From Candidatus Micrarchaeia archaeon (GTDB lineage Archaea; Micrarchaeota; Micrarchaeia; Anstonellales; J096), in assembly GCA_041500405.1 (NCBI GenBank), contig JBGQMB010000008.1, positions 1 to 27,548 on the forward strand: a stretch of 27,548 nt of DNA, in the 5' to 3' direction. Position numbers and translations under genes: made by a program. The notes under the pieces were generated by a model, which worked only from the letters and a program-made list of their open reading frames with translations, searched no databases and had not been told where the DNA came from. Shown in pieces: positions 4,239 to 25,702 of this stretch (position 1 is its first letter; each line of letters opens with the position of its first letter).

Positions 4239-4601
4239 ATGGAAATGACAATGGCAGAGGCAAGGGAAACAACGCTTACGCTCAAGGGCGCGGAAAGGTT
4301 CGCGCCTGCATGGATAGTCTCAGGCTCAAGGAAGAACATCTCCAATTTCAATGAAACATACCAGTTCCTCGCAGCCAGGTTCGTGAAATACCTGGAGCAG
4401 AGGTTCGGGGACAAGGGCATCAACAAGGAGGCGTTCTCGCACCTTTTCATCAGGTTCCTTTCGCCGTTCTGCTCACCGGAGTTCCTGAAGCAGAACGAAA
4501 AGAGCAGGCTCAAGGCATGGAAGACCATTGAGGGCATGCTCAGCAACAGCATGGACAATCAGTCATACGCCATCGGGAACGGCGAATTCGTTGCGGCCTA
4601 G
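4239..4601 (+). CDS. Hypothetical protein (120 aa) within the AAA/vWA operon
   Basis: ATG directly abuts the upstream TGA (TGA-ATG) and its stop meets the next gene; no motif recognised. Confidence 0.75.
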   Translation: MEMTMAEARETTLTLKGAERFAPAWIVSGSRKNISNFNETYQFLAARFVKYLEQRFGDKGINKEAFSHLFIRFLSPFCSPEFLKQNEKSRLKAWKTIEGMLSNSMDNQSYAIGNGEFVAA

Positions 4602-7600
4602 TGGTTTGCATGGCCCCATTAAAGACCGGAATCATTGAAGAAACCAAAGGGGGGCAGGCGCGCGCAAGGCAAACGGGCATAATGGAGCCCGCGAGGCCCC
4701 TGACAAGGGAGATGGCGCGCAAGGCAAGGCGCTTTTCCGACTATGGCGCATTCACGGAGCTTGCCGCGCAATACGGCGGCGACGTTGTCAAGGCTTACGA
4801 GATTGCGAAGGGCGACGTTGTCGAGGAGGCAAAAAAGGCGTCCGAGGATTTGTTTCCCACTGCAGGCAACAGGGACGCGTTCGAAAAATCAGTGAGGAAA
4901 TTCTGCGACGACTCATTTTCGCTCCTGTTTGCCATGGTGCTGATGGGCGATCAGCTGGACAGGCAGTTTTCCGCCCGCATCGAGTCCGCGCTGGCGCAAA
5001 GGGGCAGGAACCTCATCGGCTTCGTCAACGATTTCGAGGACCTCAAGAGCCCAAGCAGGACAAGGGAAAGGGTGCTTTCAACATTGGAAACGTTCAGGGA
5101 CGAGTTCCCGCGCTCCCTCTCCGGACAGCTGGACAAGTTCGCATCCGAGGTGAAAAAGGGAACGCACGACGACACGTTTGCGCAAATCTCGAATATTTAC
5201 ACCGAGACAAAAATAGGCGAGCAGAAGGGGTTCGAATCGTACTTTTTCATAAACTACAGGGAGAATGCGTTCTTCGACATCGTTTCGCTTGCGATGCTGA
5301 ACGCGTCCAGCGGCATGATAAAGAAAAACGACATGGTGTCCATGTTCAGGCGCGAAAGCCCGGAGCAGGTTTTCCTGTTTCCCACGCTTTTCGTGCCCAT
5401 TTACGGGGCCGACGACTACATGAGGCTAAGGGCAGGCAAGGTCTCCGCAGACATCCCGATAGACGACCAGCTGAGGGCGGTCCTGTCCGAGCAGGAGATG
5501 TGGAAGGACGTGCCAATAAGGCCTGCCGAGCAGACAATTCCGCCGCTCGGAAGCATATCAAGACTGATAAGGGAGATGCCGTCCGCAAACGTGGACGCTG
5601 TCACAAGGGCGGAAAACAACACGCTCCCGCCGCAGGAGATGAAAAGCTTCATATTCAGGAGGATGGCGGAAAAGAAGATAACGCCGGTGCTTGACGTGGT
5701 GCCTTCAGGATGCTCGATGGGCGAAAGGGATGCCATAAGGGCGAATTCCTCTGCCAGGACTGTCCATTACGGGATAAACGACACGTTCCCGGAGATGGAC
5801 GGCGGCATAAGCATGATGTTCCACCACCTTTCAGACAGGCTAAGGTTCGTCAACAGCATGAAGCAGTCGATTGGGTACACCGACGGCACTGGCATATACC
5901 TTTTTCCGTATTACTCAAGGATGCCGACAAAGGACCTGAACGCCTACATGCTTTTTGGCATCGCAAGGCACGAGTTCGGCCACATAGACATGGGCTCGTT
6001 CGACTACACGGCAGGCGCGCCCCCGGAAATAGACCTTTTTGCGCCGCTTGCGAAGAATCCGGAATACGCCAAACGGTACAAGGAGAAAGGGGAACAAAAC
6101 ATAAAAGAGCTCCAAGATTTCCTCAATGGCGTCATGGAATCCGTTGACCATGAGCTTGGGATGAAAGCCAGCGGAAAGGCCAAGCTTCTTGAGGTGTTCC
6201 AGGCCATAAACAAAACCATAGAGTCGCACTACAAGAAGGAGGCGCATGGCAAGAACCCCTACATAAAGAGGTTCTACGAGCATTTCGGGGGCGAGACCTA
6301 CAGGTACACCGAAAACCTGCTGGACGACTACAGGATAGACAGGCACTTCTACGACGGAAAAGGAAGGGACGAGATTCTGTACGAGACCAGCGCCGCAGAA
6401 ACAGACAAGCTGAGGCAAATCTACAAGGTGTCCGAATGCATGCTTGCGATGCCGAAGGCGCTGCATATGCATAGGGAGTTCAAGGACGACCCAAAAACGT
6501 CCAATGCCCTGGACACGCTGTTCTATATGAAGATGCTCCGCGGCCGCGCGTTTGACGAGCTCATCGGCCCTAGCGTGGACCCGCTGTTCAGGGACATATG
6601 CGAGATGGCGCTTTCAAAGGCCTACACGGGCGGGAAAACGCCGAGAAGGATAAACGAAACCATGGGCGCAACCATAGAGTTCATGGCGCTTGCCATCATC
6701 TTCGACGATGCCATAAAGCCGCCGAAGGTCAAGATGCAGGAAAAAGGCGAAAAGGGCGAAAAGGGCGAAAAGGGCGAAGGCGAAGGCCAGCAGGGGCAGC
6801 AGGAAGGCGGAAAGGAGGGCCTGCCGAAAAAGGACCTTGACGAAAAAGAGAAGCCCAAGGAAGGCAAGGGCGGCGAAAAGGAAAAAGGCAAGGCCGAGAA
6901 AAAAGAGGAGGAAGGCAAGGATGAAGAGCGCGAAAGCGTGAGCCCGATAGACAAGGATCCGAACAGCGACGTCAAAATCAGCAAGGAGGAGAAGAAAACC
7001 AGCGAAAAAGGCAGGAAGGTCGAAGAGATGGGCTCAAAAGAGGAGAGGACGTACCAGACCATAGACGTTCCTGCTGAAAAAGTGGAGATGTTCAAGCAGT
7101 TTTTCAGGGACCTTAGGATAGACAAGATGGTCATAAACCGCGAGCTGGGGAAAAGGGGCGCAACCGTCGACGTCGACGAGCTGGCGAAGTTCATGTACAA
7201 AAGGGGGGCAAGGGAGGCGACATTCCTCGAGAAGCAGGTCACGGAGATTGACGTCGGGAGCCACCTTGAGGCACGGCCCATAGACATCTACATCGGCGTT
7301 GACACGAGCGGCAGCATGTCAGGGGGCAGGCTGGACCAGGCCAGGAGGATATCGCTTGAGATGCTTGCAGGCTACAGCGAGGTTGCAGGGGAGATGAGGG
7401 CCGCGAACATAAGGCTGCATTTCATAGCAGTTGCGACCGAAGGCGACCATATTGCCATAAGGGACTGGGACGCCACAAAGGGCCTGAGGGTCGAAAGGAA
7501 AGGCGACGTTTGCTCGATTTCCTACAAGTTCAGCGAGATAGGCGGCGGAACCGATCTGCCGGCCATGATAAGCCAGTTCAGGTCGTTTGTCGAGGAGATA

Positions 7601-7996
7601 AAGAAAGGCACCATATCCGAGATAGTCAGGGGCAGGAACGCCCTGAACCCTTCAGTGATGATAATGTACCTGACGGATTTCGGGGACAATGCCGGCGACC
7701 TTGAGGGCGTCGTTTCGGCGACAAGGGAGTTCGGCGAGTTCGCAACCCAGTACAGGTCCGACTCAAAGACGGTCAACTACGTCTCCAACGACGCGGGCAT
7801 AGCCACGCTGTTCGTTGTCCCTGACGACCATAGCGACAACGACGAGATAATGAACGCGGTCAAGGGCGCCACAAGCGGGGCAGTGGAGATGTTCACAGGG
7901 GAAAACGAGAAGGACGTTCTTGACAGGCTAAACGCGCTCAGGCCGGTCCTTGAAGGTCTGAGGGCGAGCAACGTGAAGGAAAAGCAGTCCAGATAG
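4601..7996 (+). CDS. Large vWA (MIDAS) protein with HEXXH zincin-like metallopeptidase domain and E/K/G-rich linker; start is GTG 4601 or ATG 4610
   Basis: GYTDGTGIYL, HEFGH (5969-5983) and ENLLDDYRID (6311-6340) resemble CobT/DUF2201-type peptidase-like domains. Charged linker about 6710-7050. MIDAS: IYIGVDTSGSM (DTSGS 7301-7315), GGGTD (7541-7555), YLTD (LTD 7670-7678). Confidence 0.88.
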   Translation: MVCMAPLKTGIIEETKGGQARARQTGIMEPARPLTREMARKARRFSDYGAFTELAAQYGGDVVKAYEIAKGDVVEEAKKASEDLFPTAGNRDAFEKSVRKFCDDSFSLLFAMVLMGDQLDRQFSARIESALAQRGRNLIGFVNDFEDLKSPSRTRERVLSTLETFRDEFPRSLSGQLDKFASEVKKGTHDDTFAQISNIYTETKIGEQKGFESYFFINYRENAFFDIVSLAMLNASSGMIKKNDMVSMFRRESPEQVFLFPTLFVPIYGADDYMRLRAGKVSADIPIDDQLRAVLSEQEMWKDVPIRPAEQTIPPLGSISRLIREMPSANVDAVTRAENNTLPPQEMKSFIFRRMAEKKITPVLDVVPSGCSMGERDAIRANSSARTVHYGINDTFPEMDGGISMMFHHLSDRLRFVNSMKQSIGYTDGTGIYLFPYYSRMPTKDLNAYMLFGIARHEFGHIDMGSFDYTAGAPPEIDLFAPLAKNPEYAKRYKEKGEQNIKELQDFLNGVMESVDHELGMKASGKAKLLEVFQAINKTIESHYKKEAHGKNPYIKRFYEHFGGETYRYTENLLDDYRIDRHFYDGKGRDEILYETSAAETDKLRQIYKVSECMLAMPKALHMHREFKDDPKTSNALDTLFYMKMLRGRAFDELIGPSVDPLFRDICEMALSKAYTGGKTPRRINETMGATIEFMALAIIFDDAIKPPKVKMQEKGEKGEKGEKGEGEGQQGQQEGGKEGLPKKDLDEKEKPKEGKGGEKEKGKAEKKEEEGKDEERESVSPIDKDPNSDVKISKEEKKTSEKGRKVEEMGSKEERTYQTIDVPAEKVEMFKQFFRDLRIDKMVINRELGKRGATVDVDELAKFMYKRGAREATFLEKQVTEIDVGSHLEARPIDIYIGVDTSGSMSGGRLDQARRISLEMLAGYSEVAGEMRAANIRLHFIAVATEGDHIAIRDWDATKGLRVERKGDVCSISYKFSEIGGGTDLPAMISQFRSFVEEIKKGTISEIVRGRNALNPSVMIMYLTDFGDNAGDLEGVVSATREFGEFATQYRSDSKTVNYVSNDAGIATLFVVPDDHSDNDEIMNAVKGATSGAVEMFTGENEKDVLDRLNALRPVLEGLRASNVKEKQSR
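6740..6787 (+). repeat. 9-bp coding tandem repeat (GAAAARGGC)x4 then (GAAGGC)x2, encoding (EKG)4(EG)2
   Basis: Read directly from the sequence, at the start of the low-complexity linker. Confidence 0.9.
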
Positions 7997-10278: not shown

Positions 10279-10311
10279 CTCTTTATAAAATGTTGAATGC
10301 AAAATAGGGTC

Positions 10312-11010
10312 ATGGCGCAGGAAAGGCACAGGCTTGATTCTAATGTTGACAGAATGCTGGCAGCCTTATTCCGGCAGATGGCGAAAGAGCGGCATAAACT
10401 GGCAGACAAAAAGCTGCCTGCAGAAAAGAAAGCGCTAAGCAGACGTGCGCAGAGAGATCTTAACAACGAGTTAGCATTTGAAGCCCGGACAGGAACCGTA
10501 AGGAAAGTAAAGAAACTGTTGAAGGCCGGCGCAAATATGGAGGCAAGGAGCACCAAGTATGGCTGGACTGCAATCATGAGTGCCGCACTTAACAGCGATA
10601 TGGGGGTCTGCGCACTGCTCATTGAAAAAGGCGCAAAGGTTAATGCAAAGAATAACAGTGGAGTGACCGCGCTCATGCTGACCGCGAGACATGGATTAAC
10701 TGAAACCTGCGCGTTTCTGATACAAAAAGGCGCTGACGTTAAGGCAAAGGACGATATCGGCTTTACGGCCCTGTTTTATGCCGCACAAGGCGACAACCCC
10801 CAAACCTGCGCCCTGCTTCTTGAAAAGGGCGCAGATGTAAACACAAGGGATAAAAGTGGCAAGACTGCGCTCCAGCTTGCCAGATCAAACCACAAAAAGG
10901 AAACGACCGCATTCCTCACTTTGGTGACTTTTGCGCCAAGGATTTTTGCGGACAAGGAAACGCCCAAACTGTTCTATTCCGATTTCAAGGCGTGCGCCGG
11001 AATGCGCTGA
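10312..11010 (+). CDS. Ankyrin-repeat protein (Ank1), basic N-terminal leader, C-terminal FYSDFKAC motif
   Basis: Repeats GWTAIMSAA, GVTALMLTA, GFTALFYAA, GKTALQLA. ATG 10312 preferred over 10297 because TTTATAAAA (about 10282-10290) lies 22-30 nt upstream and MAQE matches Ank5. Confidence 0.93.
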   Translation: MAQERHRLDSNVDRMLAALFRQMAKERHKLADKKLPAEKKALSRRAQRDLNNELAFEARTGTVRKVKKLLKAGANMEARSTKYGWTAIMSAALNSDMGVCALLIEKGAKVNAKNNSGVTALMLTARHGLTETCAFLIQKGADVKAKDDIGFTALFYAAQGDNPQTCALLLEKGADVNTRDKSGKTALQLARSNHKKETTAFLTLVTFAPRIFADKETPKLFYSDFKACAGMR

Positions 11011-12185: not shown

Positions 12186-14675
12186 TCATCCTTTCAGCTG
12201 TTTTAGCTTGTTCTCCAGCTCGCCCATTGTCATTATCATCAGGTCCCCGGTGTCAATGTAAAACTTCAGGGCGGAGGAGAGCCTGCTTCCGTCGGATATG
12301 GAGTCGAGGAATCCCTTCTTGGATGTTTCGTCCTCGAATAATATGAAGACCAAGCCGCCTTTTATGAGCTTTCTGAAATTTTCCTTTATGTATCTTATCT
12401 CCTTGGGCTCGTAGAAATACAGGAACAGCGAGTTCCACATGAGCTTCAGCTCGGCATGGTATCCCTTCGTCCTGCCTATCTCGCTGAACGGGATTATGTT
12501 CTCGATGCACATGTCCCTGAGGGACCTGAACATGGCAAGCTGCCTTACGGAGAAGCCGGAATCCTTCTCCCACGACGTTAGGCCGTAGAAATCCATCTCC
12601 TCCTTGACGTATCCCTCTTTTTTCAGCATATCCATTATGTACTCTATGTTGAAGTCGCTTGCGTATATCCTGCTTCCCCTATAGTAAATGTTGGACAGCT
12701 GCCTCTTTATGTCCTGTATGGACACGGGCGTGTATCTCCACTTGTAGAACGTGTTTATGTCCTCGAACATCTTTACGAACGCGTCCCTGCCAAGAGGTAT
12801 CTTTATGGCATCTATTGACGGGAAGTCCGGTATGTCTATGCCGAATGCCATCTCGTCCTTCCTGGCAAGCACGACACCTGCGAAGTATATCAAGAGCGAA
12901 ACAATCCCGATTATTATGTTGGTGGTGCTGAACAGCCTTCCGAGCCCCGTGGTGTCCGGCCTTGTGACAGTCAGCACAGTCTTGTATTCCCCCACTTCGA
13001 CAGTGAAGTTATATTTTCCGACCGGAACCGAGCCGCTGAAATAATCCGACATCGAAACGACGAAGTTCGTCCTTCTTCCCGTAAACGAGTATGATTTGTT
13101 GTTGCAGGAATTGCATGTTACCGTCGCGCTTGCCACCTCCTGCGGGTTGCCCTGCGAGCTGAAGTTGAACGTAAACAAGGCGTCATTGAACTTCGGGATG
13201 ACTCTTACGTCAAGGCCGCCGAACTGGATGAACGTCCTTGCGTACCTTTCCCTTCCTGAAACCTCAAACACATATGGGACTGTGCCAAGCCCGCTGTTGA
13301 TATATTGGTAATATATCGGCGTGTTCAGGTTGGACTGGTCTATGTCCCTCTCGTCCTCCTCGCTTCCGTTTGCGGCCAAGACCGACATTTTCATGTCCAC
13401 GTCTGAGGCCGCGCCGACCGTGCCGCTTGCCACAAGCTCAAACCTTGAGCCCTGGCCGGATATGGAGTATGCAAGGAGCTTGGGCGCCCCGCTTTCCTGG
13501 GCATAGAGCGCTCCGGCGTAGTCCTTGATTGCGGACCTTGTCTCAATCACTGAAAAGGACACATTCTTGGAATTGGAGATGTCATACCTGATTAGCTCGA
13601 AAACATGGCCCCCGAGCTTGAACTTCTCGGAGCCGAAATAGCGGTAGGTTCCCTGCACAGGGTTGGCTATTGCCGCTGCGCCTGGGGCGAATCCAGCCCA
13701 TTCGTCAAACGCGGAGGAGACCTTGAGCGCGTCCATTGCCGCGCCCTTTGCGCTATCCCAGCCGTTCTCAAGCGTGTTGGGCACAAAGACCATCTCCCAT
13801 CCGCAGTTCTTGGGCTGGATGATTGATACGGCGTCAAATATTGTCGTTGCGTCGCCGCCAAGGGTGTAAAGCGCATTTCTCATGCTGAGCGCCTTTATTT
13901 CCCCCTCCGGCTGGCTTTGGAAAGAGACGCCGATGCTTCTCCAAAATGTCATCAGCTGCGCCTCGCTTCCGTCCCCCATGACCTGGACGTCAGGCAGTGC
14001 GCCGATATACATGAATGTTATGCGTTTTGCCCTGTTTTCGCCAAACTGGGAGATTATCCCCTCAGGCGGGTATCCAAATGGCACCATGACAGTGGAGCCC
14101 TCTGCTATCCTCGACAGGTCAGCGTTGTTCAGCACAACGGGGTTGAGGCCGGCTTTCTTTGCCATTCTGACAAACTGGAAAACAAACTCATCAAGCCTGG
14201 ACTCGTTCCTTCCTGTCGAAATGGACCTTGGCAGGATAATGTAGATGTCCTTTGACAGAGGCCTTTCAGTTACATAGATATTCAGGGTGGACGTCGCGTT
14301 CGCCGATGCAGAAAGGCTTATTATATTGACAAGGCTGCTTTTCTTGTCTGCATAGTTGCCGTAGTCTGCATACTGTACGCCTTTTATCTCCATGGACCCA
14401 TACGGCGCCGGGGGCTGCATGTTGAATATCGCGTTTATCTCCGACGCGAATGATGATATGAAAAAGAACAGGCCGATGAAAACAAGCAGGCCGACCATTA
14501 TCGGGATGTAGTTTATGATGTTTATGGGCTTTTTCTCCTCTTCCTCCCCGCCCCCTTTTCTGCGTTTTCCGAACAAGGACTCGCTGATGCCCTCCAAAAG
14601 CGGCTTTTCCACTTTCTTCAGGCGGTATTTGACCTCAAAGGGCCTTAGCAGCTGCAGCCTTATCTTGTCCTTCAT
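12186..14675 (-). CDS. Large two-TM membrane protein (829 aa) with a large predicted extracellular domain; last gene of the VirB4-like operon
   Basis: TM1 YIPIMVGLLVFIGLFFFISSFA and TM2 IIIGIVSLLIYFAGVVLA flank about 500 aa of beta-rich sequence with many N-x-S/T sequons; about 225-aa C-terminal soluble domain. Confidence 0.8.
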   Translation of the reverse strand: MKDKIRLQLLRPFEVKYRLKKVEKPLLEGISESLFGKRRKGGGEEEEKKPINIINYIPIMVGLLVFIGLFFFISSFASEINAIFNMQPPAPYGSMEIKGVQYADYGNYADKKSSLVNIISLSASANATSTLNIYVTERPLSKDIYIILPRSISTGRNESRLDEFVFQFVRMAKKAGLNPVVLNNADLSRIAEGSTVMVPFGYPPEGIISQFGENRAKRITFMYIGALPDVQVMGDGSEAQLMTFWRSIGVSFQSQPEGEIKALSMRNALYTLGGDATTIFDAVSIIQPKNCGWEMVFVPNTLENGWDSAKGAAMDALKVSSAFDEWAGFAPGAAAIANPVQGTYRYFGSEKFKLGGHVFELIRYDISNSKNVSFSVIETRSAIKDYAGALYAQESGAPKLLAYSISGQGSRFELVASGTVGAASDVDMKMSVLAANGSEEDERDIDQSNLNTPIYYQYINSGLGTVPYVFEVSGRERYARTFIQFGGLDVRVIPKFNDALFTFNFSSQGNPQEVASATVTCNSCNNKSYSFTGRRTNFVVSMSDYFSGSVPVGKYNFTVEVGEYKTVLTVTRPDTTGLGRLFSTTNIIIGIVSLLIYFAGVVLARKDEMAFGIDIPDFPSIDAIKIPLGRDAFVKMFEDINTFYKWRYTPVSIQDIKRQLSNIYYRGSRIYASDFNIEYIMDMLKKEGYVKEEMDFYGLTSWEKDSGFSVRQLAMFRSLRDMCIENIIPFSEIGRTKGYHAELKLMWNSLFLYFYEPKEIRYIKENFRKLIKGGLVFILFEDETSKKGFLDSISDGSRLSSALKFYIDTGDLMIMTMGELENKLKQLKG

Positions 14676-14687
14676 CCGCGTTCATCC

Positions 14688-15386
14688 TCAGATTGGCTTT
14701 ACGTAGCCGTTTGATATCATGTCCTGCAGCGCGTTCATGGCCCTTTGCTCATTCACATCATATCTTTGGGAGAATTCCCTGATGTCAAGCTCGCCGTCGT
14801 GGTCCCTTATCCACTCGGTTATCTTGAGCTGGAGAACCTCGTCCGTGAACTTCATGAATTTCTCAAGCTTAGCCTCCGTGGAGGAAAGCCTGTTGCCGAC
14901 CGCGTACAGCTTTTTCGTAAGCTCCTCGTTCTCATGCTTGTAGCTGTTGAGCAGCGCCGTGACCTCGTTCATCCTGCTCTTTAGCTTGTCCCTTTCGATA
15001 TACACTTCCTTTGAGCCGCCCGGTATCATGGATTCCATGTCCTTGACCAGGTTTCCGACCAGCTCCAGCATGAACCCGATGTCCATATCATAATATTGGG
15101 CCGCGACATTGAGGAGCGGGAACACCTTGTTGAGGACCTCCCATTTCCTCACCGCCTCTATCTTGTCAGGCATAGTATAGCCTATGTCTATGCTTCCTGT
15201 CTTGAAGTCAATTATGAAGAATTCCTGCGGCGTTCCCTTTATGTCCTTGGATTCCACATACGCGAGCGAAACCGCGTCCCTTGTCTTGACCAGCATCGCC
15301 TTTTCCCCGACTGCGGCCAGCGCGTCATAGACGTCCTTTGCCTTGCCCTTGAGCGAGGCGTTTATCCTTATGTATCCTGCCCTCAT
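14688..15386 (-). CDS. Hypothetical protein: N-terminal alpha/beta domain, coiled coil, C-terminal winged-helix-like domain (232 aa)
   Basis: Heptads ERDKLKSRMNEVTALLNSYKHENEELTKKL; ITEWIRDHDGELDIREFSQRYDVNEQRAMNALQDMISNGYV; ATGA overlap with the upstream gene. Confidence 0.75.
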   Translation of the reverse strand: MRAGYIRINASLKGKAKDVYDALAAVGEKAMLVKTRDAVSLAYVESKDIKGTPQEFFIIDFKTGSIDIGYTMPDKIEAVRKWEVLNKVFPLLNVAAQYYDMDIGFMLELVGNLVKDMESMIPGGSKEVYIERDKLKSRMNEVTALLNSYKHENEELTKKLYAVGNRLSSTEAKLEKFMKFTDEVLQLKITEWIRDHDGELDIREFSQRYDVNEQRAMNALQDMISNGYVKPI

Positions 15387-15817
15387 TTTTTACCGCCCCT
15401 TTTTTGCGGCTGCGCCTTTTTCGTTTCCTTTCCATCCTCTATTGCCGGGACATAAGTGAAAATCAGGAAAATCGGCACCATCAGCACCAGGAGCACGCCA
15501 AGCAGCAGCGCCCTCAGGATATCGGCAACATCCCCGCTTGAAAGGTTGACCACGAATATTATGACGAAGAACACTGCGGCCAGCGCGGAAAGCAACAGCA
15601 CGTTGCGCTCAAAGCCCTTCCTTTTCTTCATATACTCTTCCTTGTGCTTTTCGCAGACAAACAGCCTGTTGTTTTTCAGCTTCATGCCCAGCTTCTGCTT
15701 TGCCGCTTTCATCAGGTTAAGCACGCGGTCGTCCTTTACCCTGGATGCCTTGCCTCGCACTGTCTCGTGGCCTATTATGCACACATCAGCGTTTTCCGGA
15801 ACGTCGTCAGTCGTCAT
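15383..15817 (-). CDS. Small two-TM membrane protein with N-terminal Cys/His motif (144 aa)
   Basis: CIIGH...CEKH followed by two hydrophobic helices; ATGA overlaps on both sides. Confidence 0.8.
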   Translation of the reverse strand: MTTDDVPENADVCIIGHETVRGKASRVKDDRVLNLMKAAKQKLGMKLKNNRLFVCEKHKEEYMKKRKGFERNVLLLSALAAVFFVIIFVVNLSSGDVADILRALLLGVLLVLMVPIFLIFTYVPAIEDGKETKKAQPQKRGGKK

Positions 15818-17394
15818 TTCCTTTCATCCTCCAAAACGACCTGGGAAATCGAGGACGAGGTCTTGCCCTCCTTCCTGAAGTCCGCTTTCGTGAATATGTT
15901 GATTATGACAGTGTCGTCAATCCCCAATTCCTTCAGGAACGTGCTCATTATCCTCCTGTTGACGCCCATCCTCTCAAGCGTGACCACGAACGTTATCACG
16001 TCAACGTGCCTGCTGCTTTTCTCGAAGAGGTTGACAACGTCGTCAATCTTCTGCTCGTCAACGCCTATGGACCTGAGCTTGTTCCTTACTTCCTCTTTTC
16101 TTACCGAAATTGTATATGCCATTGCACCACCCTTCTTCTTTGCCATGACCTCCTTGAGGTCAATGAAATACTCCTTGAGCGGCTCTTCGCCCGCTATCTT
16201 TCCCACTATGAACGTCATTGGGAAGCTTTCCGGCGTGTGGAACGCCATATTGACCGCAGCCTGCCCCACGCCAAATTCCCTTATCCTGTTCCGTATGTAG
16301 TTGCTGAAGTTGAGCGTTCCCTGGAGATAGTCCAGGTACTTCTCGAACTTCACCTTGAGTATGAACGTTGTTCCCACGTTGCTGAATATGACCTCGCTGA
16401 TGTCGGTCGGGTTTTGGCTCGCGATTATCAGCGCGAAGTTGTATTTTCTTCCTTCGCGGACTATCATGACCGCGTCGCTGTTGGGGTCGCTTGATATTTT
16501 CCACGCCTCGTCCAGCACCGTGATAAGCTTAAGCCCCTTTGTCGCGGACCAGCCTTCCAGCCTCATCCTTTCCTTGATGAATTGCAGTATCGTGAGCCCG
16601 CCGAGCGCCCTCATTGTCTCGTCCGGGAGCCCGCTCAGGTCTATGTCGACAAGGCCTGCCGACGTAAGGCTCGCAAGGTCGACCGTGCTCTTGTTTGCGA
16701 AGAAGTCCTCGCCCGGCTTCGTGAACCTCTTGAGCCTGTAAATGCAGTTGTCAAGCTCCGCCGGAAACTCATATGTCCCAAGCTGGGACCTTTCCTCCAG
16801 TATCGCGACAACGTCCTTGAGCGTGGGCGCCTCCAGCGCCCTGCCGAGCTCGTCCTTCTGCTCATTGCTGTCCATCTTGAACTTGGCCTTCTTGTATGCC
16901 TGCTCTATGGCCTCTTCCGTGAGCCTCTTCTGCTCCGGGTAGTTCTCCATGTCCGTGAGCAGGGCAAGCGTCCTCATGACCTGCTTTATCCTGTCATACG
17001 GCTTCATGCCGCCGAGGTCAAGCAGGTTCAGGTAGTTGGCCCTTCCGAGCTGGATTATCTTTCCGCCTGTCTGCATCACCCAGTCCTTGTATTCCCCGGC
17101 CCAGTCTATGATTATCGCGTTTGAGTTCCAGACAAAGCTGGCCCTGACCAGCAGCGTCTTGATGAAATAGGACTTTCCGCTTCCTGAAATCCCGACTATC
17201 GCTATGTGCGGGTTGGTTATGATGTTATAATCCCAGAAGAACGGCGCGTTCAGCCCGTCCGTCTTTCCCACATAAAGCGAGTTCATGGGATCGCGGAACA
17301 GTATGTGCATCGGCGGCTCCGGCGCATGCGTGAGAATGTTCCTTCTTGACAGCTCAGTGTTGTTTATGCGGAACATCGTCAGCTGGGTCGCCAT
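15814..17394 (-). CDS. VirB4/HerA-FtsK superfamily ATPase (526 aa)
   Basis: NPHIAIVGISGSGKS, IIIDWAGEY, LNLLDL, PTLKDV, Walker B VLDEAWK, VREGRKYNFALIIASQNPTD; extra about 100-aa helical C-terminal domain. Confidence 0.9.
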   Translation of the reverse strand: MATQLTMFRINNTELSRRNILTHAPEPPMHILFRDPMNSLYVGKTDGLNAPFFWDYNIITNPHIAIVGISGSGKSYFIKTLLVRASFVWNSNAIIIDWAGEYKDWVMQTGGKIIQLGRANYLNLLDLGGMKPYDRIKQVMRTLALLTDMENYPEQKRLTEEAIEQAYKKAKFKMDSNEQKDELGRALEAPTLKDVVAILEERSQLGTYEFPAELDNCIYRLKRFTKPGEDFFANKSTVDLASLTSAGLVDIDLSGLPDETMRALGGLTILQFIKERMRLEGWSATKGLKLITVLDEAWKISSDPNSDAVMIVREGRKYNFALIIASQNPTDISEVIFSNVGTTFILKVKFEKYLDYLQGTLNFSNYIRNRIREFGVGQAAVNMAFHTPESFPMTFIVGKIAGEEPLKEYFIDLKEVMAKKKGGAMAYTISVRKEEVRNKLRSIGVDEQKIDDVVNLFEKSSRHVDVITFVVTLERMGVNRRIMSTFLKELGIDDTVIINIFTKADFRKEGKTSSSISQVVLEDERK

Positions 17395-17402
17395 GGTCGC
17401 AC

Positions 17403-18242
17403 CTAAATATTTGTCCCGGTCTTTTCCGACTCTGTCTGGTCCTCAAGCTCTTCTATCGTAGTTGGAAGGAACCTCTCCCACTCAAACGCCTTGAGCATCT
17501 CATCCCCGGTAAGGAGGTCTGTCTCGCAGTTGAATGAGTTTGACAGGAGCGTGCCGAGCTTGTCCGCGGCGTTCTTTACCCTTGCCACGGCCTCGTCCTT
17601 CGTTATTCCCGTATCAGTGACCATTGCGTAGAGCACGACCTTCATGGGCCTGAGCCCCTTGCTTAGCTGGTTTATCATGCCCTCAAAATAGGCAATCTGC
17701 CTTTCGAACTGGTTTATCCTGAGCACGTCCGGCTCGCTCTTCTCCCTTTCCTTCTGGAGCTTGAGCTGGGCCTCGGCCTTCTGCGTCTCCAGCTTTTTCC
17801 TGTCGTTGGAGATGTCCACCGCGTGCATCGCATACGAAATCTTGACGACCTTCTTGAACTGGGTCATGGCCATCTCGAACTGCTTGTTGTATGAGACCAT
17901 CTCGCCCTCTTCCCTTTCCAGCGCGGACTGGTATATCTTCATGCCAAGGAAGGCGGACGCATAGTAAACGCCGTTCTGCGCCTTCTTGACTATGGTGTCC
18001 TGCGCCGGCGGTATCTCGTAGCCGGTGTCAGTGACAACTACTGTCTTGGTCTTCTGGGTTATCATGGGCACAACAAGGTATCCCATTTTTATGAAAATCG
18101 CCGCGCCTATGGCGCCAAGGCCGGCAAGCGCGCCGCCTATCATTGAGAATATTCCGCCCCCTGTGGCTATAGACACCAATGCGCCCACGGCTCCTATGCC
18201 GATTGAGACGAGCGCAAGGTTTTTGTTCGAGACTTCTACCAT
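17403..18242 (-). CDS. Membrane protein (2 N-terminal TMs) with coiled-coil-containing soluble domain, possibly VirB3/PrgI-like fused to a VirB4 N-terminal-like domain (279 aa)
   Basis: Gly-rich TM hairpin, then an alpha/beta domain with a helical hairpin; AGGAGA RBS; 8 nt upstream of the ATPase. The family assignment is inference. Confidence 0.7.
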   Translation of the reverse strand: MVEVSNKNLALVSIGIGAVGALVSIATGGGIFSMIGGALAGLGAIGAAIFIKMGYLVVPMITQKTKTVVVTDTGYEIPPAQDTIVKKAQNGVYYASAFLGMKIYQSALEREEGEMVSYNKQFEMAMTQFKKVVKISYAMHAVDISNDRKKLETQKAEAQLKLQKEREKSEPDVLRINQFERQIAYFEGMINQLSKGLRPMKVVLYAMVTDTGITKDEAVARVKNAADKLGTLLSNSFNCETDLLTGDEMLKAFEWERFLPTTIEELEDQTESEKTGTNI

Positions 18243-21640: not shown

Positions 21641-21760
21641 TCTTCACCCCAAAAGAAGCTACTATTGGTCGCTGAGGCGACAATAAGCCCCTGGGTTCAA
21701 AAGAAAGCATTTTGCCGCCTGCCGGCGCTATTTTTAACCCCTTTGCCGCATAATAAAGCC

Positions 21761-22324
21761 ATGCAGGAAAGGAAGGGCTTGCTCAGGCGCGCGCTTGAGA
21801 GGATGCATATCATAAAACGCATCAAGGAGCCAGCGCCAAGCGAAAAACCGCATATTTCCGAGGAAGAACAGAAAAGGCTGAACAACGAACTGCTCAGGGC
21901 CGCGAACATCGGCGATAATGCAGGCATTGAACGGCTGCTCAAAAAAGGCGCAAGCATCAATGCAAAGGACAATGACGGCTGGACCGCGCTCATGTGGGCC
22001 GCAGCGAGTGGACACACCCCAGCCTGCGCCTTCCTTCTTGAAAAGGGCGCAAATCTCGAGGCAACGGACAAAGACGGCTGGACCGCGCTCATGTTTGCCG
22101 CATACTGCGGACACGCCCAAACCTGCGCTTTGCTGATTGAAAAAGGCGCGGACGTAAACGCGAAGGCAGAAGAAAAAGGAGCTTGGAAGGGCAAGACCGC
22201 ATCCTCAATCGCCGAAGCAAACGACAAAAGGGAAACGGCCGCATTCCTCAAGTCCATGGAATGGCTTATCGGCATGACCGAAAACGCGTTCATGAAGCCG
22301 TTCGGCGAGTGCCTTGCCCGATAG
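21761..22324 (+). CDS. Ankyrin-repeat protein (Ank2), MQERK leader, C-terminal FMKPFGEC motif (187 aa)
   Basis: DNDGWTALMWAAASGH, DKDGWTALMFAAYCGH, GKTASSIAE. Start ATG 21761 set by homology with Ank3/Ank4 and the upstream TTTTTAA. Confidence 0.93.
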   Translation: MQERKGLLRRALERMHIIKRIKEPAPSEKPHISEEEQKRLNNELLRAANIGDNAGIERLLKKGASINAKDNDGWTALMWAAASGHTPACAFLLEKGANLEATDKDGWTALMFAAYCGHAQTCALLIEKGADVNAKAEEKGAWKGKTASSIAEANDKRETAAFLKSMEWLIGMTENAFMKPFGECLAR

Positions 22325-22407: not shown

Positions 22408-23325
22408 ATGGCGTTCATAAGGAAAAAGAGAAAGGGCAACACTTACTACTACGAGCTTGTCGAAAGCAGGCGCATCGGAGGAAAAGTGGTGCAGAAGGCG
22501 CTTGAGTATTTTCCAACACTGCAGGCTGCGGAGGCGTACGCGGAAAAGCACGGGATTGGCATGCCTGCGCATGAGGAAGAGTGGATGGACGCGCCGCTGC
22601 GCAGGGCGCTGGAAACAAAGCTGAAAAAGCTCAACGCCGTGCGGCCGCTTCCGCCGGCCGCCCTTGCGCGCCTCAGGGAAAAGTTTGAGGTTGACATGAC
22701 CTACAATTCCAATGCGATAGAGGGAAACAGGCTCAGCCTCCGCGAGACGTGGCTTGTGCTGACCAAAGGCATGACTGTGCGGGGCAAGTCCGTGAAAGAG
22801 CATCTTGAGGCCACCAACCACCGGGAGGCGATAGAGCTGCTTGAAAGGCTCGCCGATTCAAGAAAAAGAATTACTGAGGCGGACGTGCTGGGCCTTCACG
22901 CAATCATACTGGACAAGATAGACCCAATCAATGCAGGCTTTTACAGGCACGAAAGCGTTTTCATACAAGGCTCAAGGCTTCAGCTTCCGAAATGGAGGGA
23001 CGTGCCGGGGCTCATGAAAATGGTATATAAACAGCTGAACGACGGAAGCAAAGGCGCAAAGGCCGTGTATTCCGCAATAGCAGTCCATCATGGCGTGGCA
23101 AGGATACACCCGTTTGTTGATGGGAACGGGAGGCTTGCGCGCCTTCTGATGAACCTGCGGCTGATGCGCGCCGGGTTCCCGCCGACAATCCTGCGGAAGG
23201 AGGAAAGGCGGGCATACTATTCGGCGCTTGAGAAGGCGGACGGCGGGGATTTCCGGGCGCTGGCAATGCTGATAGGGAAAGATATAGAAAGGGCAATCGA
23301 CAGCTACATCGAGGCCGCAGAATAG
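22408..23325 (+). CDS. Fic family protein (class II-type, canonical AMPylation motif) with basic N-terminal beta domain
   Basis: HPFVDGNGRLAR (23107-23142); inhibitory-helix motif SNAIEGN (22708-22728); N-terminus MAFIRKKRKGNTYYYELVESRRIGGKVVQK. Confidence 0.93.
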   Translation: MAFIRKKRKGNTYYYELVESRRIGGKVVQKALEYFPTLQAAEAYAEKHGIGMPAHEEEWMDAPLRRALETKLKKLNAVRPLPPAALARLREKFEVDMTYNSNAIEGNRLSLRETWLVLTKGMTVRGKSVKEHLEATNHREAIELLERLADSRKRITEADVLGLHAIILDKIDPINAGFYRHESVFIQGSRLQLPKWRDVPGLMKMVYKQLNDGSKGAKAVYSAIAVHHGVARIHPFVDGNGRLARLLMNLRLMRAGFPPTILRKEERRAYYSALEKADGGDFRALAMLIGKDIERAIDSYIEAAE

Positions 23326-23341: not shown

Positions 23342-23395
23342 TAGCGTTTTTTAAACAGTTGCGGACACAACAAAGCCATGCAGGAAAGGAAGCCG
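23342..23395 (+). repeat. 54-bp exact direct repeat, copy 1 (TATA box, start codon and first codons of Ank3)
   Basis: TAGCGTTTTTTAAACAGTTGCGGACACAACAAAGCCATGCAGGAAAGGAAGCCG, identical to 24047-24100. Confidence 0.95.
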
Positions 23396-23989
23396 TTGCT
23401 CAGGCGCGCACTTGAGAAACTGCACATAAGAAAACGCATCAAGGAGCCGGCGCCAAGCGAAAAGCCGGCATTATCTGCAGAAAAGCAGAATCAGCTCAAT
23501 TATGGCCTGCTGAAAGCCGCAAGGAACGGCGACAACGAAGAAATAGGCCGGCTCCTCAAAAAGGGCGCAAGCATCGAGGCAACGGACAAAAACGGCAATA
23601 CCGCGCTCATGCATGCCGCAACGTACGGAAACACCGAAACCTGCGCCTTCCTGCTTGATCATGGCGCAAAACTCGAGGCAAAGGACATCTTCGGCAGGAC
23701 CGCGCTCATGTGCGCCGCAGAGAACGGACGCACCCCAACCTGCGAATTCCTGCTTGAAAAAGGCGCAAGCATCGAGGCAACGGACAACGACGGCTGGACC
23801 GCGCTCATGCATGCCGCACAGAACGGATACACCCAAACCTGCGCTTTGCTGATTGAAAAAGGCGCAGATGTGAACGCGAAGATTGAAAAAGGAGATCATA
23901 AGGGCATGACCGCGTCCTCAATCGCCGAAGCATACGGCAACGAAAAAACGGCAGCATTCCTCAAGTCCATGGAAACATTGCAGGGCTGA
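23378..23989 (+). CDS. Ankyrin-repeat protein (Ank3), close paralog of Ank2; probably prematurely terminated (frame continues to 24049)
   Basis: Three full internal repeats (GNTALMHAA, GRTALMCAA, GWTALMHAA). After TGA 23987-23989 the same frame reads IGKEEVQGFLSDFRACLGK*. Confidence 0.92.
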   Translation: MQERKPLLRRALEKLHIRKRIKEPAPSEKPALSAEKQNQLNYGLLKAARNGDNEEIGRLLKKGASIEATDKNGNTALMHAATYGNTETCAFLLDHGAKLEAKDIFGRTALMCAAENGRTPTCEFLLEKGASIEATDNDGWTALMHAAQNGYTQTCALLIEKGADVNAKIEKGDHKGMTASSIAEAYGNEKTAAFLKSMETLQG

Positions 23990-24046
23990 ATTGGCAAGGA
24001 AGAGGTGCAGGGTTTCCTCTCTGATTTTAGGGCATGCCTCGGAAAA

Positions 24047-24100
24047 TAGCGTTTTTTAAACAGTTGCGGACACAACAAAGCCATGCAGGAAAGGAAGCCG
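24047..24100 (+). repeat. 54-bp exact direct repeat, copy 2 (promoter/start of Ank4)
   Basis: Identical to 23342-23395. Confidence 0.95.
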
Positions 24101-24571
24101 CTCCAAGGGAATGTTCCAGCAGAGAAACCAGCGAAGCATAATGTCAATATTGCGCCAAGCGAGAAGCCAAAATTATCAGCAGAAGAACAGAACCGGCTCA
24201 ACGATGCGCTTCTCGAAGCCGTACGGAATAACGAAAAAAATGAGATAGAAAGACTCATCAAGAAAGGCGCTGACATTGCCGCAAAAGGCGATGACAGTTG
24301 GACTGCCCTTCACTGGGCTGCGGGTTACGGATTAACAGAAATCTGCGCCCTGCTTTTAGAACAATACGCAAAGGCAGGCGGAAACATAAAGGAGCTAATC
24401 ACCGCAAAAGGCAGTTTGTTCGGCTGGACACCCCTAGACTGGGCTTCAAAGAGAAGGGGCGCCAAAACCGCGCAGTTTCTTGCAGTCAAATTGCTTGAAG
24501 CAACATTTGGAAATGAAACGGCGGCCGCCTTCATGAAATCCTTCAACGAGTGCATCTCGGATGGTGGCTGA
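24083..24571 (+). CDS. Ankyrin-repeat protein (Ank4), MQERK leader, YAKAGG insert, C-terminal FMKSFNEC motif
   Basis: SWTALHWAAGYG, GWTPLDWA; LSAEEQNRLNDALLEA capping segment shared with Ank2/Ank3. Confidence 0.9.
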   Translation: MQERKPLQGNVPAEKPAKHNVNIAPSEKPKLSAEEQNRLNDALLEAVRNNEKNEIERLIKKGADIAAKGDDSWTALHWAAGYGLTEICALLLEQYAKAGGNIKELITAKGSLFGWTPLDWASKRRGAKTAQFLAVKLLEATFGNETAAAFMKSFNECISDGG

Positions 24572-25255
24572 ATGGCGCAGGAAAAAAGTCAAACAACCAA
24601 AAGCCAAGCTCTATTTTCAAGCCCAAGGCTAACAAATGACATATTGCCGAGCGAGAGGCAAAAACTCACGATACAAGAGCAGAAACGGCTACATGACGCA
24701 TTCCTCATTGCTGCAGAGAAAGGCAACAACACAGAAATAGAGCAGCTCCTGGATGCAGGCGCGGATATCGGCGCAATGGACAGCTATTCTCACATGACAG
24801 CCCTGCATTTGGCTGCAGACAAAGGCCATACTGAAACCTGTGCCCTGCTGATACGGAAATACGCAGAATTGGGCAATGGATTGAAGCAGCCAGTAAACGA
24901 CCCGGAACTGGAGCTCCGCTATGGAACCATCTACGGAACCATTTATGGATCAAAATGGGGAGGAGTGAAGGAGTTCATTTCCGCAAAAGCCAGACGGAAC
25001 GAGACAGCCATGCACAGGGCCGCAGAGCGTGGACACACCTTGACCTGCCTGCTGCTCATGCAAGAATACGCAAAAGCCGGCGGAGACATGAATGAGCTTG
25101 TTGCTATGGGAAATTGCAATGGCTTTACAGCCGTGGACAAAGCCGCAGGGGTTACCAAGCAGGTCATAAAGCATGCGCCGCTATTGCACAATTTGCTGGA
25201 TAATGAAACGCTCATCTCATTCGTAACATCCTTCGCGGAATGCACGAGCCAATAG
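24572..25255 (+). CDS. Ankyrin-repeat protein (Ank5), with inserts, C-terminal FVTSFAEC motif
   Basis: MTALHLAADKGH, ETAMHRAAERGH, GFTAVDKA; ATG abuts the Ank4 TGA. Confidence 0.9.
   Translation: MAQEKSQTTKSQALFSSPRLTNDILPSERQKLTIQEQKRLHDAFLIAAEKGNNTEIEQLLDAGADIGAMDSYSHMTALHLAADKGHTETCALLIRKYAELGNGLKQPVNDPELELRYGTIYGTIYGSKWGGVKEFISAKARRNETAMHRAAERGHTLTCLLLMQEYAKAGGDMNELVAMGNCNGFTAVDKAAGVTKQVIKHAPLLHNLLDNETLISFVTSFAECTSQ
24920..24952 (+). repeat. 12-bp coding tandem repeat encoding YGTIYGTIYGS
   Basis: TATGGAACCATC TACGGAACCATT TATGGATCA. Confidence 0.8.
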
Positions 25256-25288
25256 CGTTTTTTAAATTATTGCAACCAGGTTGAATAT

Positions 25289-25702
25289 ATGGGCAAAAAT
25301 GGACTAGATGAGCTTCTTATGTCCGCAATCGAAACCAATGACGCAAAAAAAGCCAAGGAACTGCTGAAAAAAGGCGCGAACCCCAACGCGGCAGACGCCG
25401 ACGGCTGGACCGCGCTGATGTACGCGGCATGGAAGGGCAACGAAGAGGCGTGCAAAATCCTTCTTGAAAACGGCGCAAAAGCCAATGAGAAAAACAAAAT
25501 TGGAAGGACCGCGCTCATGTACGCGGCACTGATGGGAAATACCGGCATATGCAAGCTTCTTGTGAAGCACGGCGCAGACACAACAATCAGGAGCGTGTGC
25601 GACATGGACGCGCGCATGCACGCCGAGCACGAAAAGCAGGAGGAAACCGCGAAGTTCCTCAAATCCCTGGAAAGGCGCAAGGGCAACGTTATTAAACCTT
25701 GA
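25289..25702 (+). CDS. Minimal ankyrin-repeat protein (Ank6), no leader and no F-x3-F-x2-C tail
   Basis: DADGWTALMYAAWKGN, NKIGRTALMYAALMGN; preceded by TAGCGTTTTTTAAA (25253-25266). Confidence 0.9.
   Translation: MGKNGLDELLMSAIETNDAKKAKELLKKGANPNAADADGWTALMYAAWKGNEEACKILLENGAKANEKNKIGRTALMYAALMGNTGICKLLVKHGADTTIRSVCDMDARMHAEHEKQEETAKFLKSLERRKGNVIKP

Follow-up and report, generated by a model that had tools for sequence, protein, structure and literature searches.

A five-gene membrane operon of Micrarchaeota as the possible motor half of a machine derived from a type IV secretion system

What does a VirB4-like ATPase do in a chromosomal membrane operon of a micrarchaeon? Micrarchaeota are tiny, mostly host-dependent archaea, and the question is raised by five genes, A to E, at positions 12186 to 18242 of a contig of 27,548 nucleotides (JBGQMB010000008.1, assembly GCA_041500405.1). 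The window analyzed here is this whole contig, which is C8 of the source genome (G000; 916 kb in 60 contigs, 86% complete). We propose, with about an even chance of being right, that the operon is the motor half of a domesticated machine that derives from a type IV secretion system (T4SS), serves cell contact by building a pilus or a dock, and probably imports. The parts of this proposal differ in strength. That the machine is T4SS-derived is very probable; we lean slightly toward its being used on a host or partner cell; and nucleic acid as the cargo is a tentative suggestion, somewhat more doubtful than not. The genes are as follows (lengths in amino acids, aa; TM, transmembrane):

A, 279 aa, 17403..18242, minus strand: two TM helices and an alpha/beta domain of the VirB4 N-terminal type, here detached, that has a coiled-coil hairpin
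B, 526 aa, 15814..17394, minus strand: an ATPase of the FtsK/HerA superfamily that lacks the N-domain and the HAS barrel and has a helical C-terminal domain of ~100 aa
C, 144 aa, 15383..15817, minus strand: a small basic domain, an eroded Cys motif and two TM helices
D, 232 aa, 14688..15386, minus strand: a soluble alpha/beta domain, a coiled coil and a C-terminal winged helix
E, 829 aa, 12186..14675, minus strand: two TM helices around an external part of ~490 aa, and a conserved inner domain of ~200 aa

A first-pass annotation of the window, made by a model from the letters alone, had described these five open reading frames (ORFs) and their lengths, and the coordinates agree with it, as do the junctions from A to E: an 8-nt gap, two ATGA overlaps and a 12-nt gap. 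Hydropathy also bears out its two TM helices each in A, C and E, and gives none in B or D. Its description of C as a Cys/His protein did not hold up, as these residues lack conservation, with C13 alone reaching 90% of 38 rows. A promoter and terminator scan of the operon was uninformative.

The operon is a core chromosomal operon of Micrarchaeota and not a mobile element. This follows from its spread, from the lack of close viral or plasmid relatives, and from the lack of an integrase or coupling-protein match in G000. B was matched in 41 of the 41 genomes of a search for relatives and in 134 of 151 Micrarchaeota genomes sampled across the phylum (E ≤ 1e-20; both counts include G000). E was found in 133 of the same 151 genomes (E ≤ 1e-15), with the same pattern across families. 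As 16 of the 17 B-negative genomes belong to six families, these absences represent few independent events. The first-pass annotation had said that a non-conserved operon would speak against its proposal, and we found that the order A-B-C-D-E is kept in 25 of 29 related loci. (Of the other four, two read B-C-D-E on contigs that stop before A, one stops before E, and one is a paralogous module. G and L numbers below label the relative genomes and loci that we compared.) All but one of the 29 loci are assigned to Micrarchaeota or a lineage within it, and the remaining one to Woesearchaeota. B is at least 50% identical across families, and the flanks of the operon are conserved among relatives. 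In searches with alignments of A and of the channel candidates discussed below, the homologs were hypothetical proteins only, and the named sources were Micrarchaeota or "uncultured archaeon". Among the relatives of B, one locus has an ATPase with a LAGLIDADG intein (1047 aa in total; L060:8488-11628 in G043), and another has B read as two ORFs of 315 and 181 aa (L052:3930-5501), which is either an assembly error or a broken gene.

Could the operon still be the remnant or core of an integrated conjugative element? Distant relatives of B do sit on conjugative plasmids, and a tRNA-Pro gene lies 1.9 kb away. Against this stand the presence in 134 of 151 genomes and the conserved flanks, which largely refute the idea and leave it barely credible. 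Also, the G+C content of the operon genes (0.49-0.55) resembles the rest of the contig, the plasmid search gave only remote ATPase matches (among the matches listed, all below 28% identity), and no relative of A was seen among the viral contigs searched. In G000, at 86% completeness, there was no match to the integrase family PF00589 and none to the coupling-protein family PF02534 (T4SS-DNA_transf, VirD4). The integrase test is weakened by the fact that G000 has zero tyrosine recombinase matches, not even XerA, which is probably an assembly gap. The only other FtsK/HerA match in G000 is a HerA with a HAS barrel. Within the window, a scan of the 25 proteins against the family libraries found no relaxase, coupling protein, integrase, nurA, mre11 or rad50, so the earlier statement that there is no mobile-element context stands, both nearby and given the spread. 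One flank has a convergent glycosyltransferase, tRNA-Pro and LonB, and the other has an antiporter, superoxide dismutase and thiolase, in line with the earlier description of the flanks as housekeeping genes, but the window also carries six ankyrin genes and one Fic gene.

A and B are likely one VirB4-type motor, split into an anchor with the N-domain (A) and an ATPase (B), because the predicted fold of A matches the N-domain of TrwK/VirB4 from plasmid R388. With the model of A (predicted local distance difference test score, pLDDT, of 84) as the Foldseek query, all 12 listed matches of ranks 1-13 were R388 TrwK/VirB4 (best E = 5e-4). A direct comparison by VIA to residues 15-374 of TrwK/VirB4 gave Z = 11.7 and a root-mean-square deviation (rmsd) of 4.9 over 145 aligned residues; in a wide VIA search, coiled-coil hairpins dominated and TrwK was tied at Z = 8.0. 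The first-pass annotation had considered the components to be unlike named T4SS or Ced subunits, and for A this has to be revised. Profile comparisons were weaker: hhalign aligned A to the N-domain of the CD1110-family VirB4 at E = 0.0034, one further comparison gave E = 0.034, and searches of Pfam and of PDB sequences with A found nothing meaningful. The TM hairpin of A lies at the position expected for PrgI, and its alignment to three PrgI proteins was out of register. A is likely the membrane anchor and scaffold of the motor. Several families have two A genes (A and A') and, as a separate small gene, an additional copy of the C-terminal domain of B. Split motor arrangements are also found on Firmicute plasmids, so splitting alone is not new.

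B matches the Pfam families DUF87, AAA_10 and P-loop_TraG and, in the Pfam scan, has no HAS barrel. Among NCBIfam models, its best match is CedB (70.8 bits), followed by two VirB4 models (68.3 and 65.6), CedD (65.4) and HerA (52.1), all far below their cut-offs (700 bits for CedB and 600 for CedD). A similar ranking appears across 59 ATPases, where the best E values were 3.5e-30 for CedB, 5.3e-27 for the CD1110 VirB4 and 5.9e-17 for HerA, with CedD also above HerA. Walker A, Walker B and an REGRK motif are invariant in all 59 sequences. Two quick trees, of 72 and 33 rows, place the Micrarchaeota ATPases in a clade of their own, separate from the HerA clade that holds the HAS-barrel HerA of G000. 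(The trees included no CedB sequence and left out one VirB4 row, and their groups were named HerA, VirB4 or VirD4-like according to annotation, length and context.) The HAS-barrel HerA is encoded on contig C9, and NurA on C2. B is easily mistaken for a repair HerA in annotations, which may explain why the system was overlooked.

If A and B are the motor, where are the pilin and the channel? When neighbors were clustered, the region upstream of A in other families proved to encode a family of polytopic membrane proteins as well as a small protein with two helices. In G049 and G127, a single run comprises the pilin(s), six membrane paralogs, A, A', B, the C-domain copy, C, D and E; G042 has the same run except that the pilin is ~2 kb upstream. 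There are also compact modules of a pilin, one paralog, A and B (L068, L069, L076, L091, L092, L095, L099-L101 and L135), which occur as second copies or alone, and in the ATPase tree the six-paralog type nests within them. In G000 itself, the paralog and pilin genes are not on the contig of the operon: six paralogs are on C22, six more run from the end of C2 into C43, and seven pilin candidates lie on C9 (five) and C3 (two). The Pfam T4SS_pilin model had exactly seven matches at E ≤ 1 in the whole of G000, and these are the seven candidates (best E = 2.8e-5); one candidate reached 26.7 bits against TrbC, for which the cut-off is 27.9. The first-pass annotation had taken the five genes to be the channel itself. 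Instead, they would be the motor half, with the putative channel and pilin genes on other contigs here. Its broader idea of a domesticated chromosomal machine across the envelope is favored by the core spread, the VirB4 N-domain fold, the link to pilin and channel candidates, and the absence of mobile marks.

The evidence that ties the paralogs to CedA or VirB6 is indirect. The pilin profile aligned to the N-terminus of the paralogs with hhalign E = 8.5e-4 over 43 columns (at low probability), the hidden Markov model of the channel also picks up two pilins, and in an Atlas neighbor cluster of the paralogs 23% of 78 members carry Pfam CedA1. The paralogs also track the motor: among 37 hand-chosen genomes, they were found in 20 of the 20 with B and in 1 of the 17 without. 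(That one genome, G166, carries a six-gene array together with a diverged compact module; its main motor operon was not found, and 5.8 kb of further sequence on the contig of the array contains neither A nor an ATPase.) Finally, the paralogs group by their position in the array, with 14 changes as against a mean of 44.5 for shuffled data (0 of 200 shuffles were as low; 65 rows), although the paralogs of G000 itself form long, unresolved branches in that tree. This position-wise clustering fits a ring of six different subunits. Two other features of G000 bear mention here. Two VirB11/TadA-type ATPases are encoded on C7 and C3, away from the operon and the arrays, and one of them is ~21 kb from two of the pilins. 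Directly after the second six-paralog array, there is a gene for a cysteine-rich predicted lipoprotein of >1222 aa (L082:1524-5189, on C43).

The partners C, D and E have no match above a family cut-off in Pfam or NCBIfam, and A, C and E have no Pfam match at all. C, which is absent from most of the single-channel modules, is an accessory membrane subunit. D is the partner most often kept with B and is retained in most of the paralogous modules; its winged helix weakly matches CdvB, PCI and EAP30, and the three Atlas clusters shown for it consist of Microcaldota hypothetical proteins. D is likely a cytoplasmic adaptor. (A predicted complex of B with D scored 0.00, which counts neither for nor against this.) The model of E (pLDDT of 78) predicts an external part of beta-sandwich domains with an inserted alpha/beta domain. 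Residues 142-327 resemble the alpha/beta domains of ThuA-like proteins and of GH42-type proteins (the middle domain; best Z = 11.4, rmsd 3.7, 173 aligned), and residues 385-574 resemble Ig/FN3-like sandwiches. If the model is right, the likeness to GH42 and ThuA still says nothing about function, and E is likely an envelope-spanning strut or an adhesin. By eye, the inner domain of E resembles a winged helix plus a nuclease-type fold. A role as a nuclease is unlikely: of 34 rows, 29 keep the candidate Asp, but this E has His in its place, and no E-x-K comes after it. The winged helices of D and E align to each other only at E = 0.011.

How might these parts work together? A would anchor in the membrane and recruit B, which would rebuild VirB4 from two genes. 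B would then drive VirB2-like pilins out of the membrane and onto a ring of six different CedA/VirB6-like subunits, while C and D would link the motor to the ring and E would span the envelope as a strut or adhesin. Because no coupling protein was found, we expect that flow would be inward, as in Ced. G000 has a single motor but two putative rings of six genes each and seven candidate pilins, which would provide alternative surface ends.

Proteins that appear to belong to this machine have been detected in a co-culture of Microcaldus ARM-1 with its host (PMC11329633). In supplementary file 1, with abundance given as iBAQ (intensity-based absolute quantification), BCS90994 ("HerA") has a mass of 56.5 kDa and an iBAQ of 2.33e9; it is followed by 90995 (12.6 kDa, 0.68e9), 90996 (15.1 kDa, 0.85e9), 90997 (28.3 kDa, 1.66e9), 90999 (90.9 kDa, 0.79e9), and then topoisomerase VI B and a KH protein (PMC11329633). 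By mass and order alone, as sequences were not compared, these rows fit B, the C-domain copy, C, D and E, whose masses in the relevant families are 52-61, 10-12, 13-19, 25-31 and 81-99 kDa. In all six loci of those families, E is followed by the genes for topoisomerase VI B and the KH protein. The fit has two blemishes: 12.6 kDa is slightly above the family range, and no A precedes the ATPase, as is also the case in two of the six loci. If the identity is right, then B of ARM-1 is five times as abundant as the other protein named HerA (4.65e8) and about half as abundant as ribosomal protein L14e (4.9e9). The operon thus offers named, conserved and probably abundant proteins for work in an existing co-culture. 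The ARM-1 envelope also contains a 21-nm barrel of unspecified make-up where host nanotubes arrive (PMC11329633). A more speculative proposal, which we consider quite improbable, is that the six-paralog ring, E and the split motor are this barrel: a receiving dock that would pump host nucleic acids or proteins in as food, with swaps of rings and pilins setting the host range. If so, the dock would be a conjugation machine turned feeding organelle, convergent with the T4SS of Patescibacteria.

Several observations weigh against the proposal of a T4SS-derived contact machine. The tubes between ARM-1 and its host originate from the host (PMC11329633). All of the pilin matches fall under the cut-off; the six paralogs have no VirB6 or CedA match in Pfam or NCBIfam and no match among solved structures; and none of three individual channel candidates aligned with them (E = 0.67, 0.53 and 0.046). 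As the genomes without the machine are related to each other, few events underlie the co-occurrence. A was not significantly aligned to four other proteins that bear an N-domain (E = 0.07, 0.1, 0.26 and 0.28). The coupling protein may be missing only because G000 is 86% complete, and other families hold further FtsK/HerA ATPases. As for B, its family membership depends on the method: NCBIfam favors CedB and VirB4, whereas a profile search of PDB puts six HerA-type structures above the VirB4 structure 4ag5. In the trees, its clade is outside the VirB4 clade, the join to VirB4 has a support of only 87, and a sister relation to HerA is not rejected (p = 0.49, approximately unbiased test).

These results leave some room for a HerA-like ATPase that has been reused for division, membrane remodeling or surface-protein export and whose likeness to T4SSs reflects remote ancestry. 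The leading HerA structures in the PDB search, the very high conservation of B across families, and the weak matches of the winged helix of D to CdvB and EAP30 would all suit this idea. We consider it very unlikely, as the predicted fold of A is that of the VirB4 N-domain and the operon is linked to pilin-like genes; also, 17 of 151 genomes, all but one of them from six families, gave no match to the operon ATPase, which is a poor fit to an essential role in division. The first-pass annotation had named an ATPase that groups with repair HerA as evidence against its proposal. B is not a repair HerA, and its clade lies beside VirB4 and apart from that enzyme, but the tree test is compatible with a sister relation to HerA.

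The closest known systems are Ced of Sulfolobales (CedA, CedA1, CedA2, CedB, CedD and CedE) and Ted of Thermoproteales (TedA, TedB and TedC), which import DNA (PMC9905601, PMC11868833). Like the Micrarchaeota machine as we propose it, these are chromosomal archaeal T4SS derivatives with a trio of a pilin, a polytopic channel and a VirB4-like ATPase. In both, the pilin is homologous to the N-terminus of the channel (the CedA1 pilin is related to the N-terminus of CedA; PMC9905601), and the VirB4 N-domain is divided between proteins. The differences are that, here, the N-domain and the ATPase are separate genes, whereas CedB and CedD carry the TM segment, N-domain and ATPase in one chain; that there are six position-specific channel paralogs (12 in G000); and that C, D and E belong to no named family.

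Given these similarities, the same machine could be used as Ced is, to import DNA of the same species for repair and recombination rather than for contact with a host. CedB is the best NCBIfam model for B, the set of pilin, channel and ATPase is that of Ced/Ted (PMC9905601), and G000 has a repair HerA and NurA. Nevertheless, we think that such a use is unlikely. DNA damage induces Ced genes (PMC11868833), whereas the ARM-1 counterparts, if correctly identified, are abundant in co-culture. DprA was found in only 4 of 44 genomes and does not track the machine. Also, a set of six or twelve paralogs that are divergent and surface-decorated, together with several pilins, suggests the recognition of a partner.

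Another possibility is that the machine exports effectors, such as ankyrin proteins, into the host. G000 has ~60 ankyrin ORFs, many of them with a basic leader and a shared C-terminal motif, F-x-x-[DNSAE]-F-x-x-C, and 23 of the 25 ORFs that bear this motif are ankyrin ORFs. Ankyrin matches occur in 16 genomes, every one of which belongs to the 27 with the machine, while none of the six machine-negative genomes has any, and there is a Fic gene in the window. But 11 of the 27 machine-positive genomes have no ankyrin match, the motif may be the ordinary capping helix of a recently expanded family, and G000 has no match to a coupling protein, which most secreting T4SSs need (PMC12102498). On balance, an exporter seems decidedly unlikely, a little more so than Ced-like import. 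Separately, we note where these genes lie: ankyrin genes are at 10297-11010, 21665-22324 and 23378-25702 of the window, with the Fic-domain gene at 22408-23325 within the ankyrin cluster. A 198-aa ORF at 21697-22293 on the minus strand is the shadow of a plus-strand ankyrin gene. Large ankyrin expansions are also present in G001, G002, G008 and G124.

If the contact machine is as we propose, a counterpart in lifestyle is the MPF-FATA-derived T4SS of Patescibacteria, which is also domesticated in a small-genome, host-dependent lineage, mostly lacks a relaxase, has an array of VirB2-like pilins, and is essential for epibiotic growth in Southlakia epibionticum (PMC12102498, PMC12857230). That system is bacterial and has homologs of VirB3/PrgI, VirB8 and VirB1, none of which is shown in the Micrarchaeota system, and the Micrarchaeota ATPase falls outside the VirB4 clade in our trees. 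The T4SS of R388 is a plasmid-borne exporter with a coupling protein and a relaxase. Its inner-membrane complex (TrwK/VirB4, TrwI/VirB6 and TrwM/VirB3) shares with our operon the N-domain fold predicted for A, but its VirB4 is a single chain rather than A plus B. Repair HerA of the HerA-NurA pair belongs to the same ATPase superfamily, and NCBI-style names label B as HerA, yet B has no HAS barrel, and the HerA and NurA of G000 are on other contigs, with that HerA in another clade. Within DPANN, the one published VirB4-like system that our literature search turned up consists of giant proteins of Nanohaloarchaeota with VirB4/TraG domains, which have also been proposed to act in host contact (PMC10266531); there, the ATPase is fused to a giant Ig-repeat protein and there is no five-gene operon (PMC10266531). 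Two machine-negative genomes have other systems. G111 encodes giants of 2912 and 3395 aa that end in an FtsK/HerA-type ATPase domain and are followed by a small ATPase (L130:3149-11884 and L131:904-11088), and these resemble the Nanohaloarchaeota giants (PMC10266531). G139 has a conventional T4SS cluster with a TrbC pilin over the cut-off, a PrgI-like fusion, VirB4 and a second ATPase (L132:4085-12222).

The system is apparently undescribed in print and would be a variant of the domesticated T4SS: among the matches listed by a full-text literature search, none ties Micrarchaeota to VirB4, Ced or T4SS, and the main texts of PMC8975820 and PMC8784108 contain none of the terms VirB, type IV, secretion and HerA. 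An open question in DPANN biology is how these archaea attach to their hosts and draw on them, and the papers on cultured Micrarchaeota name no such machine. If our proposal is right, then the two great lineages of small symbionts, Patescibacteria and Micrarchaeota, have each domesticated a conjugation machine on their own, and the split motor with a six-way channel would be a new T4SS architecture.

Elsewhere in the window, positions 1593-7996 hold another operon, which encodes a double AAA protein of 881 aa and two further proteins, of 120 and 1131 aa. The larger of these two has a DTSGSM motif that we take to be vWA-like, although Pfam gave no match for it, and the operon resembles MoxR-vWA pairs.

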